A stretch of DNA of 63,875 nt, counting the filler, from Blastocystis sp. subtype 4 (Eukaryota), in NCBI RefSeq assembly GCF_000743755.1. It is 51 parts of 51 records of this genome, joined end to end, with 100 filler letters (N's around TTAATTAATTAA, not from the genome) between each part and the next. Parts side by side here need not be neighbours in the genome. Positions count along the whole stretch, not along the records: positions 54,439 to 55,441 come from NW_014568556.1; positions 55,542 to 56,558 come from NW_014568554.1; positions 56,659 to 57,689 come from NW_014568545.1; positions 57,790 to 59,389 come from NW_014568507.1; 47 more parts are not named here. One strand, written 5' to 3'. Within the stretch, counting starts at the first letter, position 1. Every line of letters starts with the position of its first letter. Made by a program: the position numbers and the translations under genes. This document shows, in pieces, positions 18,951 through 60,229 of this stretch. The notes under the pieces are model-generated. The model saw only the letters and a program-made list of their open reading frames with translations, did not search any database and was not told where the DNA came from.

Positions 18951-19934
18951 GTGTTACAAATGATCCAGTAGAAGAAACAGAGAATAAAGGAAGAGCATAC
19001 AAATCATTGAATGGTGTAGGAGGATTTCGAACTCAAGCAGTTAGTTGTGATAAGTTGCGTGCTGTTAGAACAAAGAGATTGGCATTGTAGCATGATATTG
19101 TTTTGTTGTTGTTTGACTTTGTGTGTTCGTTTAGTCATTTGAACATGCCAGGAGTTCGTATGAGTGATTTGCGTTCGGTTCAGTTTGATGTGTGTGATGG
19201 TGATGATGAAGTAGTATCAATCGCTTCAGACATCTATACCAACATCCGTTTGAGTGTGAACGGAAGGTTTAAGTTAAACAGCATTAACTGGAAGGTTTAA
19301 GGTGCTATGCAGTTGCTCCGCAACTCGCTGATAAGTTGATGTTAGATTCTTTTCATTTTGAATCGATTAATCAATTCACCGTATTCACTTTGTATATGTA
19401 AGGAACAAACAAGTGAATACGGTGAATTCACCAATGATTGATGGATTTCTCAAAGATCGACAACCAAACCACTATAAAGGGTGTCGATATTATGGTCTGG
19501 GTGTCGATAATTGTTGAATAAACGATCTAAAAGAATGGTTGGTGAATAGTTTTATGGGGATTTTAGTGTTTTCTGGGTGTCGATGATGAGGCTAGCGTGT
19601 CGATAATTATGAAAATGATCTTAGAAAAGTGAAAAGAATTGGAGTATTCACCAATTCACTTCATTTCTCAAAAGTCTTTAAAGATCGACACCCAAACCCA
19701 TTTATCGATACCCAGATAACAATCATGGTATTATTGAGACATTACTTACAAACCATCTCCCGTATTTCTATTCAGTTATCTGAACATCAAAAATAGACCA
19801 TATTTTTGCACAGATTTAGCGGTTGTTCGTCACCCTGTTTACTTAACCATTTTTGCACATATTTATTGCGTCAGCTCAAGGAGGTGTGGCACTTGCGCCT
19901 CGCCCTCCGCAGAGCACGCATGGACTCAGGGCTC
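18951..19934 (+). mobile_element. Terminal segment of an unclassified element: ORF end, small ORF (MPGVRMSDLRS..), iteron-like repeats and GC-hairpin terminus
   Basis: Small ORF also at 29480-29578 (-); 19838-19934 matches 55343-55441 and 57790-57888 with unrelated flanks beyond ...CAGGSCTC. Confidence 0.55.
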
Positions 19935-20142
19935 TCAGAATACCATCATTGTTTTGTTGATTCATTCTCTGTGGAGGAATGGCTTCAGGGTTTAATTGAA
20001 TTGGAGAATTTGAGTTCATTGTTTCTTCTGCATTCTCAGATGNNNNNNNNNNNNNNNNNNNNNNNNNNNNNNNNNNNNNNNNNNNNTTAATTAATTAANN
20101 NNNNNNNNNNNNNNNNNNNNNNNNNNNNNNNNNNNNNNNNNN

Positions 20143-21534: not shown

Positions 21535-22325
21535 ATGGAAGAATTGAAAAGGGTTCAAGAGGAACTTGTGTTTGCTAAAGCAGATGCCAAAGTACTGAAA
21601 CAGAAACTGGAGATGACAGAAGGACAGTTCAATCAACTAGCAACTGAATATGCCACTTTCAGATACAGTGTTAGTCAAAGTGATTGGCAAAGAACAATCA
21701 ATGAAAAAGATGCTATGATTACATATCTTCAAAACAAGCTTCAGAGTGCAGAGGATGAAGTGAACGCATTCTTACAGAGAAGACAAGCAATGCATGATGA
21801 AGAGATAAGGAAGAAGACAAAAGAAATAGCGGATTTACGATCAAAACAATTGGATCAACAAATTAGAGACAAAGAAGATCATTTCAATCAACTATCACAG
21901 AAAGATGATGAGATCTTGCTAATATCCAAGAAGAACTGAGGAAGGTGAAGAAAGAGGCCAAATTGAGTCTACACAATGCTAACGACAAAGCATTAAACAA
22001 GGAACTACAATTGGCTGATAATCTCACCAAATTCAAACGCGTTACATGGTCTCTACTTGAAAAGGTATTGATCTCATATGAGAATACAATGCTCTATATT
22101 GATAATGTTGAGAATGCTGTGAAAGATTGTCAGATAATTGTTAATACATTGATGGATGATACAGGAAATCTAATCAAGACAAGATTTGATCGAGTACCTG
22201 TTCCTAATGTTAAGGAAAGTCAAGTTAGTGTGAAACAATTCAAGAATAAGTACCTGAAAGATATTGATCAAGAGGTTCAAATGATGAAGAGTAAGTATCA
22301 AAGTGAATTCAGTTCTACTAATTAA
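21535..22325 (+). CDS. Intronless coiled-coil protein, frameshifted near 21915 (pseudogene or sequence error)
   Basis: Heptad E/K/Q-rich ORFs 21535-21939 and 21945-22325; the alternate frame continues QEELRKVKKEAK. Confidence 0.45.
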
Positions 22326-22721
22326 TCCCAATAGAATTTCACTTTGATTGTTTTGTATGTTCTTCCATGTGTATTTGATCCTGCTATACGATCATGTTGA
22401 TTCAATACCTTCTTCACANNNNNNNNNNNNNNNNNNNNNNNNNNNNNNNNNNNNNNNNNNNNTTAATTAATTAANNNNNNNNNNNNNNNNNNNNNNNNNN
22501 NNNNNNNNNNNNNNNNNNTCATTAACTGAATGAAGTCAGTTGTGATTGTGGGATCCCAAATCTGAGTATTCTTAGTTATCTAATGAGTATTGATGGATAC
22601 TAGAAACAAAATCTGTGTTTACTGATAATGATTGTTCGTATAGAATCAATTGAATCGAGTTCTTTTCCTCCTAACAGCTTCTTCTCTCTAAACTCTCAAC
22701 AAACATATAGCAAGCTCAAAA

Positions 22722-29260: not shown

Positions 29261-29578
29261 AAGCCCTGAGGCCAAGTGCAGTGGTAGAACAAAAGTGTGA
29301 ACAAGTATAATGCAACGTTTACTGAGTGACAGGTATGGATTATAGTACTGCTAACAAAACAATCTTTCAACCAAAGGCTATACTACCAAACAAGTGATAG
29401 ATACAAGTCAGATATGGTAGCTACCATATAGAGCCAGAATATACACCTTCTCATCAATACTCAATACCAAATACTTGTTGATGTAGATGTCTGAAGCGAT
29501 TGATACTACTTCATCATCACCATCACACACATCAAACTGAACCGAACGCAAATCACTCATACGAACTCCTGGCATGTT
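29261..29578 (-). mobile_element. Variant or deleted copy of the element end seen at 18951-19934
   Basis: About 95 nt match the MPGVRMSDL ORF start; ends in GCACTTGGCCTCAGGGCTT but lacks the long hairpin. Confidence 0.45.
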
Positions 29579-30756: not shown

Positions 30757-31082
30757 NNNNNNNNNNNNNNNNNNNNNNNNNNNNNNNNNNNNNNNNNNNN
30801 TTAATTAATTAANNNNNNNNNNNNNNNNNNNNNNNNNNNNNNNNNNNNNNNNNNNNCTACTCGAGATGTTGCTAGTAATCTGAAGAATGAAGCGATTGAT
30901 CAAGTGAATGGTACAGGAAGTGTATTTGGAGGTGGATCTGTTGTTTCAAGTGTAGTTTGTCATCCTGTTAACTGCTCATCATTTAGTGTTAGAAAGTATG
31001 TTTTACTTTGTTCAGACCATTTGACTGATTACTTAACCATCCTTGCATCGATTATTAACAAACACTTTAGTATTCCCCTCAT

Positions 31083-34525: not shown

Positions 34526-35040
34526 TTTACTTATTCGAAGAATAAGAAAACATGTTTCTACTTAATAAAAAGCCAAATCACTATTTGCTACTTTTACTTT
34601 GTAAAAGGAAACATGTTTCTACTATGTAAAGGCAAAATGGATCGATATGGGGAAATGGAAAATCGACTAAATCAACCCGTCACCTTTCATTTAAAAAGGC
34701 CCATAAATAAGCTTGATCATGGGGTGAAAAAGTGACGGAGTGACGGGTGACGCATGAATTTTATAAAACTCTTTCAAAATGGTAAAATGGAAAGGTATAA
34801 ATGGGTCGATTTTCCATTTTGACATATTTTGTAAAACTTTTCAAAACTACCCGTCACCCGTCACTCCGTCACTCTTCCCTATGATTTGGCTAGATTATCT
34901 AGATGTTTTAGCTATATTATTTAGGAAAGGTGACGGGTGAATTGTTGGTGATTTTCCATTTCCCCATTTTGCAAAATCACCTCCACCCGATTTTCCATTT
35001 TGACCAAAGTGAATAATCAAATGAATAATCAGCCATACAG

Positions 35041-35316
35041 CTATAAACGCTCAATCAAATAGTGTTTTACATATCCATTCACTTCTTGTAGGCTAATGCC
35101 TGATGTATGGATGATATCTGATACAAGATTGCTCTTCTTAAGGAATGTAATTGTGTTCTTGGATAACGAGAACTTCTGTGTTCCTGTCTGATCATTTACT
35201 TTGGTTGTGAAGTACCGGTACACACGGAAATAGCCTTCATGTTGATTGAGGTAATCTATCATGTCAGATTCCAATGTGAATCGCTTCTCAATAGGGATTG
35301 CACCAGTTGAATTCAT
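35041..35316 (-). CDS. Hypothetical small intronless protein between inverted repeats
   Basis: ORF MNSTGAIPIEKRF..; start at 35316 inferred from AAAATG context and the shared upstream motif. Confidence 0.4.
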   Translation of the reverse strand: MNSTGAIPIEKRFTLESDMIDYLNQHEGYFRVYRYFTTKVNDQTGTQKFSLSKNTITFLKKSNLVSDIIHTSGISLQEVNGYVKHYLIERL

Positions 35317-35595
35317 TTTTCTTACTAAGTAAAAAGGAAACATTTATGTTTCTATGGAGAAATAATCAGATGGAGGGTGAAAGGGATGAATGGGTTGATT
35401 TTCCAAATTAGCAACTTGATTTTGCAAAATGGATTGATTTTCCAAAATAGCAAAATGGAAAATCATCAACAATTCACCCGTCACCTTTCCTAAATNNNNN
35501 NNNNNNNNNNNNNNNNNNNNNNNNNNNNNNNNNNNNNNNTTAATTAATTAANNNNNNNNNNNNNNNNNNNNNNNNNNNNNNNNNNNNNNNNNNNN

Positions 35596-36650
35596 TTTCA
35601 TCAAACAGATATGCACAAACATCTTGTTTAATATGCATCAAATAATCAATGAATGGTATCAAATCTCTTTCATCTTCATGTTCAGCATGAAATACCTTAT
35701 ATTCTGTTTTCACATTATCAATCTTTGATACAGTAACACATGATAATAGAATAGGTTTATGTTGTTTGTCCTTATCAATACAACATTCAAAATCTGCATA
35801 TACAACTACAGGAACAGGCATTGTATATCTTTGATTTTGCCATTTCAAATATGTATTACTATCACCCAATATGTATCGTTCTTCTTCAGGTACTTCATCT
35901 CCATGCATTTTGATTTCATGAACAATTGTGTATTTCTTAGCAGCAGAGAAATCACACCAACGACATTTACACAATCTAGCTGTATTACGTTGAACATTAT
36001 CCTTACTACGATACAAATGTTGTTTNAACTTACTCATATCCTTAATCAACACAAAATGTTTCACCTTCAAATGTTCATCATTCAAGATACAAAGATTCAC
36101 TTCTTGTTTAATATCAATTCTTTGATTCTTCTTAACAGGATATACACATTCTACAACCATCTTTTCAAGATTCTTCTCATCCATACTCTTCATATCAAAT
36201 CCATCAAACATTCTCATTTCATAACAGTTGATATAAACATTCAGTAGATTCTCCAATTCCTCGAATTTCTCTACACATTCTATGAATGGTTGATTATCAG
36301 CAATATTCATAGCATTCTCAATTTCAAGTATTGTATGTCCAAATACAGGATTCTTGATTGGTTTGTTCCAATACTTACTATAACCTGATACTCTTGTAGT
36401 ATTACAATTCTTGATAATCGATGAACCATTATAAGCAAGTATCAAACATCGTTGTAAACAACGATTATCATTGATACAAGGATTAACAACACATTCACCA
36501 AGAATAGCAGGAGTTTTAATACCAGCTCCAACATATACCTTTAAAGGCAACAGATTCATTTGTACACCTAGATTTCCAACATATCGCCATCCAGAACCCA
36601 TCATTTCAATTCCTTCAATTGCTTCTTCATAGAACTTAAGGAAACATTTG
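35596..36650 (-). CDS. Protein-primed family B DNA polymerase, N-terminal/exonuclease region (Polinton/Maverick/adintovirus type), partial
   Basis: Ordered motifs GSGW..PL..P....N...DNRC, HFVLIKDMS, CxxC..H Zn finger, PVVVYADFEC (Exo I); open across the contig, intronless, AT-rich. Confidence 0.8.
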
Positions 36651-46659: not shown

Positions 46660-46778
46660 AAGAACGGTCATATCTAGTGGAAAGCGCCCTAACCCGTCTG
46701 ATCTAGGAAGCTAAGTCATTACGAGTTGAGTTAGTACCAGTGTGGGGGACCCGCTGAGAAGTCTCAATGCTGTTCTTT
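46660..46778 (+). rRNA. 5S rRNA gene
   Basis: About 119 nt; helix I AAGAACGGT/GCTGTTCTT; conserved CCCGTCTGATCT, GAAGCTAAG and GTTAGTAC..TGGGGGACC motifs; T-run terminator. Confidence 0.88.
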
Positions 46779-54240: not shown

Positions 54241-55074
54241 TAGTAGTAGTGTTTTGACGCATGTTACGTATTTTTATTATCCAGACAAACCGTCGCAAAC
54301 ATGGGCCTCCAACCCTGGGTAGCTATACACGCTTAACCNNNNNNNNNNNNNNNNNNNNNNNNNNNNNNNNNNNNNNNNNNNNTTAATTAATTAANNNNNN
54401 NNNNNNNNNNNNNNNNNNNNNNNNNNNNNNNNNNNNNNACCTCCCCCATTTTCACTAAATTCCCCTTAACGAATCTATAACTAATTTTTACCAAACCAGC
54501 CTACCCTACTCAATCCAACCTACATTAAGCAACCACTCTCCCCTCTACTAACATTAATCAACTAGTATCTTTACCCCTTAATCCCCTTTATACATCAACA
54601 ACGTATATTTGAAGTCTGTTTGATTGTTTCTTCTGATCACATATTAGTAGTAGCAACTGCACACTTGGCCTCTGGCCTTTGTAGGAACTATCTTCTCATC
54701 ATTCTGGTATTCATCATCTATTCTCATTCACACAATGTCTGTTTGAGAACGGTGTCTCATCCACATACTCGGTCATCATTAGGACCTAACTTATGAATGT
54801 GAAATGCTACCATTCTCACCCAAACTTCGTGTTGTCAGGGTATATCGTTCATTTCATGAGAAGTCACCCTACTATTCTTTAACAGGAATAGTGTTTGGAT
54901 TCATGAACTCTCAACCAATCACTCGAGACTGGGACCACTCGGGAACTAGTCCAAGGCCTTAATGGTATGAACGTTAAGTGCCCTCTACGGCATCTAAGTA
55001 GTGTTTATCAACAACCCTAACAATCCATGTATTCATTATCAACAATCATTTCAGCATTCCCCTTAATTCACAGT

Positions 55075-55342: not shown

Positions 55343-55441
55343 GAGGCCTGAGGCCGTGCGTGCTCTGCGGAGGGCGCGGCGCAAGCGCCGCACCTCCTTG
55401 AGCTGACGCTCAAAAAGGAGTGCAAAATGGTTAAGTAAATA
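55343..55441 (-). mobile_element. Element terminus with long GC hairpin
   Basis: Matches 19838-19934 and 57790-57888; hairpin 55358-55409. Confidence 0.6.
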
Positions 55442-55541
55442 NNNNNNNNNNNNNNNNNNNNNNNNNNNNNNNNNNNNNNNNNNNNTTAATTAATTAANNN
55501 NNNNNNNNNNNNNNNNNNNNNNNNNNNNNNNNNNNNNNNNN

Positions 55542-56558
55542 ACTCCAGTTGAAGCATCAACAGTGAGACCAGCAGGCAGAGATCCTGAGAACACAGACAC
55601 AACAGCTGTTCTCTGAAGTGTGGGAGTCAATGAGAAGGATAATCCCTCACCAATGATGAAGCTTGTTTGAGGGAAGAAGATATACTCTGGAATTACCTCA
55701 ATTGATATCTGGACTGAAGTACTTCCAGCTGCATTTCTAGCAGTTATGGAGTAAGTGACAGACAAAGAGGCTGTTGTTGGAATTCCAGAAATCTCTCCTG
55801 TAGTAGAGCTCAAAGACAATCCAGCTGGAAGAGACTGGGAACTGATCTCCCAGTTGGTAGCAATGTNTAATGGAATACCAGTAGATACAGTCTGACCAAT
55901 CACAAATACGAATCCTGTTGAGGAATAACGAACATTCTCAGGTGGCAATAGTACACAATGAGTAGTCACTTCAGGACCCAAAGATCCATTTCTACACTCA
56001 CGATATGAATAACCACGATATCCATATCCACAATTCTTCACAGACATCTCACCTTCATTCACAGAAGGATATGCTCCTTCTCCAGCACATATTGCTCCCA
56101 CAGGCTTACAATAAGCCATATGAATCGAAGCCAGCGACATGGAATCACTTCCAACCTTGGTAATCTCCCATCGATACTTTCTGAATGTTGACATTGAGAT
56201 AGACACAGGGATTTGAGGTTTTGTTCGAGAAGTGATTGTTGTGTTCTCCAAATCCAAAATCATGACTGGTTCCTCAGCAGTATTGTTAGGATGATAATAA
56301 CCATTGATAGTGAAACCCCAAGAGATATTAGTAAAACCAACCATGTTGAATGAGTTCCATTTGCTTCCAACCAGATTCTCAACAGTCCATTCAATATAGG
56401 TTCCAATCGTATTTGGAACAGTATCAGTAGTGTAAGGATTCAGATCCATGACTTTGGCCACGGCAGTGTGAGACAACCTATTTGACGATAGTGAAGAATA
56501 AGAATCAACAACAGTAGAACAGTCTTCAACTCCAAATACTCCAGTAGCATCAAACACA
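55542..56558 (-). CDS. Variable surface protein third module + Cys-rich repeat + Ig repeats, partial
   Basis: Open ORF; CAGEGAYPSVNEGE..CGYGYRG..RECRNG; LPAGLSLSSTTGEISGIP. Confidence 0.75.
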
Positions 56559-56658
56559 NNNNNNNNNNNNNNNNNNNNNNNNNNNNNNNNNNNNNNNNNN
56601 NNTTAATTAATTAANNNNNNNNNNNNNNNNNNNNNNNNNNNNNNNNNNNNNNNNNNNN

Positions 56659-57689
56659 TCTCTATGAAGACTTCGGATACTCGAACAGACACAAACCAAT
56701 ACCAACACAAATCCAACATCACAACCTCAACTCATCCCACTTCATTCCTACCATTCATACTCACTACCATAATCTCAGTAGAATTCACTCCAGATCAATC
56801 ACACCTGAACATCTACTCAATCACAGACCACAAGCAACAGTACCATCAATCACAGAATACTCGATATAATCACCATCAAATTCAGGACTAATCGAGAAGA
56901 GACTCTTGATTCCTGTGTAATACACATCCACACAATAGTGAACTACTGTTCCGAGAATACCAGTTGTGAACGACAGAGGGAAGCTTTCATTACTCACTGC
57001 ATTCTCTGCTTTCATCACCACATTCTGATCTCTCATTCATTGAGAACGAGATCCAGAAATCATTCCATTCACTCAATCCAAACTCAAACCAGCACGCAAT
57101 TCACCTGATTCAATCGAATAGACACGAACATCTCCACTCATCAAAGGAGTATCTGAGAATGAATGGGATCGACGCAGAATGTAGGTTGATTGAGGATAGG
57201 AGAAGGCACAGAGAGGAAGGAGAACAGTGAATCTCAGAACAACCTTCTGACTGGCTCCATCACTCTGACCATTGACAGTCACACACTGCGAACAAACCCT
57301 TTCTGTTGGAGTTCCACAAATGACTCCAGTTCAACCATCAACAGTCACACCAGCAGGCAGAGATCCTGAGAACACAGACACAACAGCTCTTCTCTCAAGT
57401 GTGGGAGTCAATGAGAAGGATAATCCCTCACCAATGATCAAACTAGTTTGAGGGAAGAAGATATACTCTGGAATCACTTCGAGTGATACTTCACCTGAGG
57501 CAGATCCAACATCATTTTTAGCAGTTATAGAGTAAGTGACAGACAAAGAAGCCCTTGTGGGAATTCCACAAATCTCTCCTGTACTACAGCTCAAAGACAA
57601 TCCAGCTCGAACAGACTCCGAACTCATCTCCCACTTCCTACCAATGTTTCTGACTAATGGAATACCACTACATACAGTCTGACCAATCA
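56659..57689 (-). pseudogene. Ig-repeat stalk copy riddled with coding-strand C-to-G substitutions
   Basis: 57323-57689 aligns to 55542-55902; TCA-to-TGA stops and P-to-R, S-to-C, T-to-R, Q-to-E changes. Confidence 0.75.
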
Positions 57690-57789
57690 NNNNNNNNNNN
57701 NNNNNNNNNNNNNNNNNNNNNNNNNNNNNNNNNTTAATTAATTAANNNNNNNNNNNNNNNNNNNNNNNNNNNNNNNNNNNNNNNNNNNN

Positions 57790-57888
57790 CATTTTCTTTT
57801 ACCATTAAGCATACAATTCTTGCGTCAGCACAAGGAGGTGCGGCGCTTGCGCCGCTGCCTCCGCTGTGCACGCTTGGCCTCAGGCCTC
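57790..57888 (+). mobile_element. Element terminus with long GC hairpin (variant)
   Basis: Same terminus as 55343-55441 with a compensatory GCAC/GTGC stem change. Confidence 0.6.
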
Positions 57889-60229
57889 TATGTGATATCT
57901 TCATGTTGTGGAAAGATGATTGTGGGAATGAGACATCTTGAATTCATTGCTTATAATGAGAGTGTAAGTATTGGAGTATCAATATGGTCTTTCATTCCTA
58001 TTCTTTACACATTGATCCAGTTTCAATAATTCTCAACCTTTGAAACAAGAATATGGCAGATTATGGACAAGAATAGGTAAATGATAGAAATCATGTAGTC
58101 CAGATAATCAAGGAAATGGATTCTTTATGGATAATATCAATACAGAGGTTATCCATGTTTGGGAAGAAGATGGTACCGAATAGCGCTTCTTTCTTCGTAA
58201 CGACATATTGTGTGGAAATAATGAACTCTATGATGTACTGTTAATGTGAGGATGCATATCGATAAACAGGATTCTTGATACTACATAGGTGAGATAGAAC
58301 TGAAATGCAAATGATGGGAATAGGAAAGGATGTAGATAACAGGATAATATCACAATCTAATCACAAACACTTTGTGGATAGTACTGATATGAAGATTTTG
58401 GATGTTGTTTCTGGGTTTTGTACTAATTGCCATTGAAGGAAATCAATTACTCTGGTTGATGAATTGTTATACACTTAGTACTCTGATACTATTACTATCA
58501 AACAAAAACATAGTATGTAAGAAAAATGGAATGCTTAGCTATACTTAAGAATCTGGTAAGTAATCTAGTCATTACAAAGAATTCACTACAATCAACCTTT
58601 CAACATGTTATCAAAACAATAGCACAATACATTCAATCATTCATATAACGATAGATCTCCTTATCAATTAGTGATTCATGAGATNAATCTTGATCAATGA
58701 AGTACCGAGTAACTCTGATCTTTCCTTCTGTTATTGTACAATCAATTCTTTAAACATATTCAACAACTGTTGGATCAACAAACGAAAAGTGAAATGCTGA
58801 ATGTTGAATTAGACGAACTATTATTATGATCTTAGTACAATAGATACAGGAAATAATACTATTATTGATAATGACATAAAGATAAGATCAATTCTCTCAA
58901 ATTGTGAGTAGTTCATGAGGAGGAGATTCAATTCCATCTTCAAATACAACAGGAAGCTTGTTTTGTTTTTGGTGATAGCATTATATCTTTCTTTCTTTCA
59001 ATCCTTGAGGAAAGCATATGATCTGATCATCATTCCTCTTCAATCTCGAACAACTGATGTTTCTTTTATTCTGTACCTCTGGATTATCATAACAAATAGA
59101 AATACGTATTCAATCGATGATGAACAATATGTTTGCAGTAAGAGAAAGGATAATGTCACTTCTCATCTTCTAACCAGTGAAATATCATTATCTTTCTTAT
59201 CAATAGCCCACAAATACTCATTATCCAATACTATCATTGTGAGTATAAAGAGTCTTTCAATCAATTGTACTCAAGGTGAAACATGCAAGGAATACACAGT
59301 TCTCACTCTATTAGCTATGTATCGAAGACTCTATGGAATCAATGTGGTTGTGTTCACCAATGATACCAATACTATTCAAGTATCAAAGGNNNNNNNNNNN
59401 NNNNNNNNNNNNNNNNNNNNNNNNNNNNNNNNNTTAATTAATTAANNNNNNNNNNNNNNNNNNNNNNNNNNNNNNNNNNNNNNNNNNNNTACAATAATCA
59501 ATAATTGAAAATGAGAATGAAGATTCAGATAAGGAACACACAAATACTCCATTCCACTTCCATAAGGGATTGTAGGATAATTCTTGTTGTTGATTGTTCG
59601 AAATGAGAAATGCTTTCCAAATCTATGATAACAATCCAATTCCACTTCACATTCATCACAAATTCGATACTCAAGAGAAACAAAACTCAAGTATTGTTTT
59701 AATCACTCTCAACTCCTATCGGTCCTACAGTCTTTAGAACTACTCATTCTTGTTTATTACTGATATGTGATTCTAGAAACCAGTTTGAAGAATGATTTTG
59801 ATTAGTAGTCTTGATACATCAAAAGGGAATAATGATACACAACTAGTCATTTGTACTAAACTGTCATAGTATCTTCCATTTGTCAAAAGAGTATTAACAT
59901 CCATGTGATTATTATACTACAACCAGGTAGATGTGAAGAGTAATTGAATTAGCATTCTCTGAAAACAGTAGTGATATACATCAAGTACTGTTGTTTAAAT
60001 CCAGTACCTTGATTGTATCATAACAGTAATCCCGAATCAAGAAAGAATGTTAAGAATCAAACGAGAATGAAATGCTGAAAGAATTGAAAAGAAGAAAGAG
60101 ATACTGATTTGAGAGTGTTAGATGAAGATGATTGAAGATTGATAAGAGTATTGATGATAGAAGTGAATATGATAACATATGAATGAAATAAAGATGATTT
60201 GAAAGAGAATGAGAATATGAAAGATGAAG

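Follow-up and report, generated by a model that had tools for sequence, protein, structure and literature searches.

A precise hairpin-bearing element end in Blastocystis subtype 4, likely the terminal repeat of an endogenous Polinton-like virus

A Blastocystis MELD virus with PolB, an integrase and divergent virion genes has been reported (Starrett et al. 2021, PMC8502044). Mavirus carries an exonuclease-reduced pPolB, a separate SF3 helicase and an rve integrase (PMC11161782), and EMALEs insert with no sequence-specific target, generating duplications of mostly 3–5 bp within a range of 1–9 bp (PMC8547959). Target duplications measure 6 bp in Polintons (PMC8097293) and 4–6 bp in PLVs (PMC12220804). 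Polinton-like viruses swap replication and capsid modules by a mechanism that is open (bioRxiv 10.64898/2026.10.13.758929). SaPI origins consist of opposed short-repeat sets and an AT-rich core, with motif-specific binding by SF3 primase-helicases (PMC9371898), and Drosophila Vesanto virus offers a precedent for segmentation (PMC8363768).

Here, an element end was analyzed in a window of 63,875 nt, made up of 51 Blastocystis contigs of 1.0–2.0 kb each separated by N spacers, and in 14 metagenome loci (L series; several from low-coverage assemblies) recovered with a 22-nt hairpin pattern; rodent-gut runs with small word shares were excluded. This sequence very probably marks exactly where a multi-copy element of Blastocystis ST4 with an integrase, PolB, primase-helicase and penton ends, and it is likely the TIR of an endogenous Polinton-like (MELD) virus. 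The original prediction had left the element unclassified; its integrase, PolB and penton place it with the Polinton-like/MELD viruses, one of which is that reported from Blastocystis (PMC8502044). This assignment is operational, and the element is not a canonical Polinton, because its end motif fails and its duplication length is unsettled. The host is Blastocystis subtype 4 or a very close relative, since element proteins are annotated in the long-read assembly of Blastocystis sp. BT1, labelled ST4 in the supplement of PMC12129017, and in view of the word shares in rodent-gut runs, where at most 83% of the words of contig 18951–20042 are present. X1 may be close to the strain of the window itself.

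The element shares with the Blastocystis MELD virus the host genus, the combination of PolB and integrase, and divergent virion genes, and the best viral fold match of its penton is a MELD virus protein; termini, hairpin, modules and primase-helicase do not appear in the accessible text of PMC8502044, the comparison being by description and the penton match 26% identical. With mavirus and EMALEs it has in common an rve integrase, a PolB with reduced exonuclease, an SF3 helicase, a penton fold, terminal repeats and insertion at no sequence-specific target (PMC8547959, PMC11161782). However, the helicase is separate there and AEP-fused here, no virophage capsid, ATPase or protease occurs among the loci, and the iteron-like modules present here are not reported in the accessible text of those two sources. 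Mavirus is the closest working model for the mechanism. Polintons/Mavericks likewise combine pPolB, rve integrase, penton and terminal repeats of several hundred bp, but their ends read AGTAGT or AGAGAG, that is (AGT)2 or (AG)3, whereas the present end reads GAGGCCT-GAGGCC; moreover, the 6-bp duplication was not seen here, and the gene adjacent to the end varies (PMC8097293). Polisuviruses resemble the element in having two replicase classes, one of them bracketed by repeats (some palindromic), HNH nearby and lone AEP elements (bioRxiv 10.64898/2026.10.13.758929); here, by contrast, the brackets are homologous modules of about 310 nt with switched motifs, which also make up part of the terminal arm and flank a capsid gene as well. 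SaPI origins show opposed short repeats, an AT-rich core, an SF3 primase-helicase and a family-specific motif, but belong to bacterial satellites with one origin downstream of rep, so that the likeness is architectural only (PMC9371898). Vesanto virus has inverted ends common to different cargo and divergent PolB homologues; it differs in being non-integrating, with segments of 3.3–5.8 kb and neither integrase nor penton reported in the accessible account (PMC8363768).

The Blastocystis MELD virus is thus already known, and in a literature search largely confined to papers outside subscription we found no description of these ends, their hairpin or the modules. The end would be a new type for Polinton-like viruses. 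Homologous palindromic modules with switched repeat motifs, placed at ends and between genes, represent a candidate swap mechanism. The insertions vary between strains, lie in regions of multigene surface-protein families of this widespread gut protist, and offer a reason why such regions break short-read assemblies. A viral contig set gave no match for the two end patterns, primase, penton, integrase or PolB, nor did a plasmid search; five bacterial genome-contig matches to a 21-nt pattern contained no hairpin and were dismissed as chance.

Exact ends, hairpin and insertion sites

As originally predicted, the window contains three copies of a 52-nt hairpin, each beside a 13-nt end motif, and two hairpin-less remnants; a truncated subterminal piece was also found:

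55343..55441, minus strand: element end, commonest type; hairpin 55358–55409, end motif 55343–55355; within an LRR-gene family region
57790..57888, plus strand: element end, variant with a compensatory A-T pair; hairpin 57822–57873, end motif 57876–57888
19835..19934, plus strand: element end, decayed copy; hairpin 19868–19919, end motif 19922–19934
29261..29282, minus strand: end lacking the hairpin, at 215 nt from the 3' part of a penton
54657..54679, plus strand: short end remnant at the junction of two host sequences; weakest member
30955..31040, plus strand: truncated subterminal piece without hairpin; 87% over 88 nt

With up to two mismatches the end motif matched seven times against 0.64 expected, a number reached by none of 100 shuffles; the seven include two opposite-strand self-matches and so represent five places. 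The 55343 end is identical over 97 nt to the ends of L007 and L013. The tandem of this end had been likened to the slide-back repeats of protein-primed replicons; known slide-back jumps span 1–4 nt, which is below the 7-nt tandem seen here.

As DNA, two of the three hairpin copies fold well above shuffles (z-scores of -2.6 for the 55343 copy and -3.9 for the 57790 copy), whereas the 19838 copy does not (-0.5). The degeneracy ascribed to the latter was borne out for its end and extends to the apical stem, where three substitutions break two pairs. The 57790 copy does contain GCAC/GTGC in place of GCTC/GAGC, a compensatory pair from which selection on the structure had been deduced. Across six end types, counted with two non-homologous remnants left out, the outer stem is 100% paired and shows two double changes and two wobbles; this speaks for selection, but the pairing pattern was equalled or exceeded in 17 of 500 shuffles, so that covariation support for the outer stem is modest, consisting of two compensatory changes in six end types. 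In the outer and apical stems, four G-T wobbles lie on the strand that 3'-ends at the element end and one on the other strand, the latter belonging to the decayed 19838 copy. Wobbles and pairing together favour a single-strand structure, modestly but consistently.

The same wobbles favour the strand carried by outward transcripts, and RNA folds are stable (z of -3.0 and -3.7), as expected if the hairpin acted as RNA, being a terminator or insulator in transcripts running outward to either end. Nevertheless, its constant distance of 15 nt from the DNA terminus fits a DNA-end function, and Rfam returned nothing over the hairpin in the window or in L003, L007 and L009, which also sets aside a known stand-alone ncRNA; we regard an RNA role as rather unlikely. 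The sole Rfam match in the window is a 5S rRNA gene (46660–46778, plus strand, 87 bits) on a contig of the Ig-like surface-protein gene family.

The prediction of an element terminus is confirmed by an exact stop: all 14 metagenome loci terminate at the same base, GGCCTCAGGCCTC. The terminal sequence GAGGCCTGAGGCC is present in 16 of 16 intact ends of the commonest, HNH and 57790 types, duplicates of the window left out. Window and loci together gave 21 end matches with 15 distinct flanks, five of which recur across assemblies, in agreement with the unrelated flanks noted originally. Empty alleles or paralogues that start at the first flank base were found for four sites, those of 55343, L004, L009 and L013. 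For the L004 site the empty allele or paralogue is in L012 (99.3% over 300 nt), and paralogous empty sites exist for 55343. For the L013 site, the alignment of an X1 contig starts precisely at the first flank base, after 79 unaligned letters, and an X5 contig continues into the element end. The counterpart of the L009 site lies in the window:

59367..59389, plus strand: empty site or paralogue of the L009 insertion, inside a host ORF; overlap of only 23 nt

Segmental duplication is ruled out by the differing flanks and the empty sites. Several insertions sit in an LRR gene family, and about 25 contigs of the window carry Ig-like and leucine-rich-repeat genes that form large paralogous families.

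Whether the motif marks one end or both was answered by L003, which carries the end at both sides in inverted orientation; the end motif therefore marks both ends of the element, provided that L003 is not a chimera, which it may be. At the left of L003, 27 of the 28 terminal bases and the outer stem are retained, but the hairpin top is a different, longer one. Inverted arms also occur in L008 and L009, contigs that may be chimeric.

Palindromic modules and cargo

Inward of the end, 250–450 nt of shared sequence are followed by an imperfect palindrome of about 310 nt and then by varying cargo. The palindromic modules consist of opposed tandem 8–10-mers flanking an AT-rich core, with motifs GGAGTAGG in family A/B, GTGTAGTA in C, GTGTGGTA in F and GTGACGG in E. 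Families A/B, C, E and F align mutually; family D (GGGTGTCGAT) is laid out in the same way but does not align significantly with any of them. Complete palindromes are also found at internal positions, in the window and in L011 (363–733). Palindromes gave sub-threshold miRNA-precursor matches in Rfam, ascribed to their long stems. Arm and module features of the window are:

19719..19854, plus strand: subterminal sequence common to L007; 90% over 138 nt
19421..19730, unstranded: family D palindromic module; inverted sets of the GGGTGTCGAT repeat
34640..34974, unstranded: family E palindromic module with GTGACGG repeats; internal, genes X and Y on either side; another E module begins near 35424

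A conserved TATAACTGAATA box, single or as an inverted pair, is found in all end arms (e.g. near 19770), at the position where subterminal types switch. Another shared sequence, resembling AAAGTAAA-ATG, lies ahead of the penton, primase and W starts (L003, L008, L009, L013) and is also found at the inner edge of modules; possibly it is a viral promoter or start signal.

The search for encoded enzymes yielded an rve integrase and a PF03175 PolB. Nine end–gene junctions were measured, at 199–862 nt from the end. In L007, an intact rve integrase (PF00665, E 1e-9) lies 862 nt inside the end; its DDE residues are kept in 15 homologues, and it matches retroviral integrase structures. In L013, a 644-aa PolB adjoins the end (PF03175, E 2.4e-15 on the polymerase part; 30 of 30 atlas matches counted in its support), in line with the predicted protein-primed kind of element. 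Its motifs are degenerate (KTDS, no YG), a search for the exonuclease gave no match, and a single-sequence model was uninformative (pLDDT 34). PDB sequence searches with PolB and primase gave no match. A ~39-nt hairpin-forming segment is common to this PolB (L013 2700–2738) and the L008 primase ORF; the PolB copy contains an in-frame insertion of 9 codons that homologues of 72–84% identity lack, and in the L011 primase a frameshift lies beside such a segment.

L008 and L011 encode a 1003-aa AEP-SF3 primase-helicase (AEP, E 6e-6; SF3-type domain, E 1e-8), and L003 an HNH gene (E 1e-4). L009 encodes a 227-aa penton, truncated in L003, L010 and the window; its model (pLDDT 70) matches the mavirus penton (E 1.8e-5) and, as best viral fold match, the MELD virus protein (E 1.4e-18, 26% identical), and is a single jelly-roll penton. 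The ORFs of the 14 loci, which lack the middle of the element and include no complete copy flanked on both sides, contained no gene for a major capsid protein, packaging ATPase or protease. Purifying selection among close copies is weak (dN/dS 0.17–1.9, on few changes). Cargo genes in the window are:

18951..19300, plus strand: 3' part of the penton gene, at a distance of about 650 nt from the end, with single-depth contigs tiling the stretch between
29444..29578, minus strand: other penton copy, 3' part, from sequence comparison
21535..22379, plus strand: frameshifted copy of coiled-coil gene W and end of gene V; W and V precede PolB in L013
34375..34570, minus strand: gene X (98%); after the integrase in L007, after the palindromic module in the window
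35044..35343, minus strand: gene Y, 91–100 aa, between two E modules

The mechanism we infer comprises insertion, hairpin folding, origin and shuffling steps. The element's own rve integrase would recognise the GAGGCC end and insert the element. During strand-displacement replication or integration, the hairpin would fold on the 3'-ending single strand and might then help to present the end to the protein-primed PolB or the integrase, a candidate role to which we give an even chance. By analogy, the ~310-nt palindrome is a putative iteron-type origin for the AEP-SF3 primase-helicase, a proposal that we consider equally balanced. Since modules are repeated both at the ends and between genes, recombination among them would invert, swap or delete cassettes and give rise to mosaic elements and many short penton-only derivatives; that such module-driven shuffling is real we judge slightly favoured. 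As a whole (identity, roles of hairpin and origin, and shuffling), this best explanation is probable.

Gene order and the number of elements

The multi-gene element with mosaic, shuffled or deleted derivatives fits best and is favoured by the BT1 long-read locus tags. In BT1, integrase and gene W occur twice at a spacing of five loci (001059/001064, 004742/004737), which places the L007 and L013 ends in one element, and integrase and penton occur once at a spacing of four accessions. Relatives at 47–56% identity occur on many contigs of 27–29 kb, and penton and integrase clusters on contigs of matching sizes (27958 and 22381).

Two pairs of loci with the same flank, L003/L008 and L011/L013, hold different cargo inside, and therefore some short-read joins are probably chimeric. 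Together with the low-coverage origin of several loci and the missing duplication at the L003 ends, this could suggest one virus of fixed gene order with decayed copies, the varied joins being assembly chimeras across repeated modules. Against this stands the penton–D–end–flank path, which in X1 is tiled by contigs of depth 37–39 with no differences. Furthermore, penton 3' ends are found against four distinct arms, two alternative upstream neighbours exist for gene X and likewise for the V+PolB unit (the other one of the latter in X5), and the HNH end borders module B in L003 but module C in X1. A fixed order is unlikely.

Summed depth in X1, which is not copy number, is very uneven, at about 38 for single-copy sequence, 130 for W, 307 for V+PolB, about 1600 for the hairpin and about 7200 for the penton 3' part. 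The last 110 nt of the penton (19155–19265) reach about 4–5 times the summed depth of the hairpin, beyond two ends per copy. The unevenness would suit a segmented integrated virus, Vesanto-like but integrating, in which each gene or gene group formed its own unit of 2–12 kb between two ends and complemented the others in trans. Also in its favour, inverted copies of module C bracket the primase, which reaches an end from either side (L008, L011), the L009 penton lies between two end arms, the end-to-gene distance is 584–599 nt in four cases, and the BT1 annotation lists truncated pentons on several contigs. On the other hand, full palindromes are also internal, and short-read assemblers can therefore join any cassette to an end; the integrase–W and integrase–penton spacings in BT1 and the 27–29 kb contigs of relatives argue against separate units as well. 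We hold strict segmentation to be quite unlikely. A broader version appears no better than doubtful, namely a reassorting, partly segmented integrating Polinton-like virus of the commonest human-gut eukaryote, with cassettes for replicase, primase-helicase and capsid enclosed by common hairpin ends and exchangeable iteron-type origins, one integrase moving separate units and complementation in trans.

Target duplications and a second end family

Among the 15 flanks there was no 5-bp pair, one self-palindromic 6-mer and one 8-bp pair, the latter formed with L002:

57889..57896, plus strand: candidate target duplication of 8 bp; its reverse complement is in the L002 flank

The chance of this pair is 0.018 for that length, before allowing for the lengths tried. 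Sequence comparison of paralogues weakly backs the pairing: their alignment extends three codons past the junction, and 5 of 200 shuffles scored as high downstream. The L003 ends show no duplication, and flank symmetry as a gauge of duplication length was not significant (family-wise p 0.09–0.17). Flank position 7 is T in 12 of 13 intact ends and therefore there is some target preference.

The 8-bp pair could point to ends of a cut-and-paste transposon of hAT or Mutator type (8–11 bp duplication, long repeat-rich ends) with captured viral genes. MULEs do have long ends with subterminal repeats and duplicate 8–11 bp (PMC6446971), and L003 and L008 contain a hAT transposase 600 nt from the end, on its outer side. 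However, no hAT or Mutator transposase lies inside the ends in the 14 loci, an intact rve integrase does so at 862 nt, flank symmetry gives no support for 8 bp, and duplications of 1–9 bp also occur in mavirus-like elements (PMC8547959), making this reading highly improbable. The hAT-family transposase is in pieces (L003 3077–5000 and the L008 flank), around which no inverted ends with duplication were found. A Helitron, as originally argued, is dismissed by an end that reads CCTC rather than CTRR and is inverted at both sides and by the lack of a match to an HUH enzyme or Pif1 in the cargo; a CRESS/parvovirus origin was dropped, no Rep having been found.

The hairpin end had been proposed as possibly belonging to the element encoding the window's PolB. 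The PolB-like ORF at 35596–36650 (minus strand) is a 349-aa open frame with a C2H2 finger, and its designation as a putative PolB comes from motifs of the N-terminal and exonuclease regions of Polinton PolB. It gave no polymerase match in Pfam, PHROG or NCBIfam, has no similarity to the L013 PolB and is accompanied by neither module nor end; no link to the hairpin end emerged. A second end family, starting with AGTAGTAG, the usual Polinton motif, is represented in the window (54242–54338) and at four loci, L003 (~5330), L011, L012 (~2320) and L013. This AGTAGTAG-type end is a candidate partner of the PolB-like ORF, likelier than the hairpin end. In L012, D-type repeats lie about 350 nt inside it.
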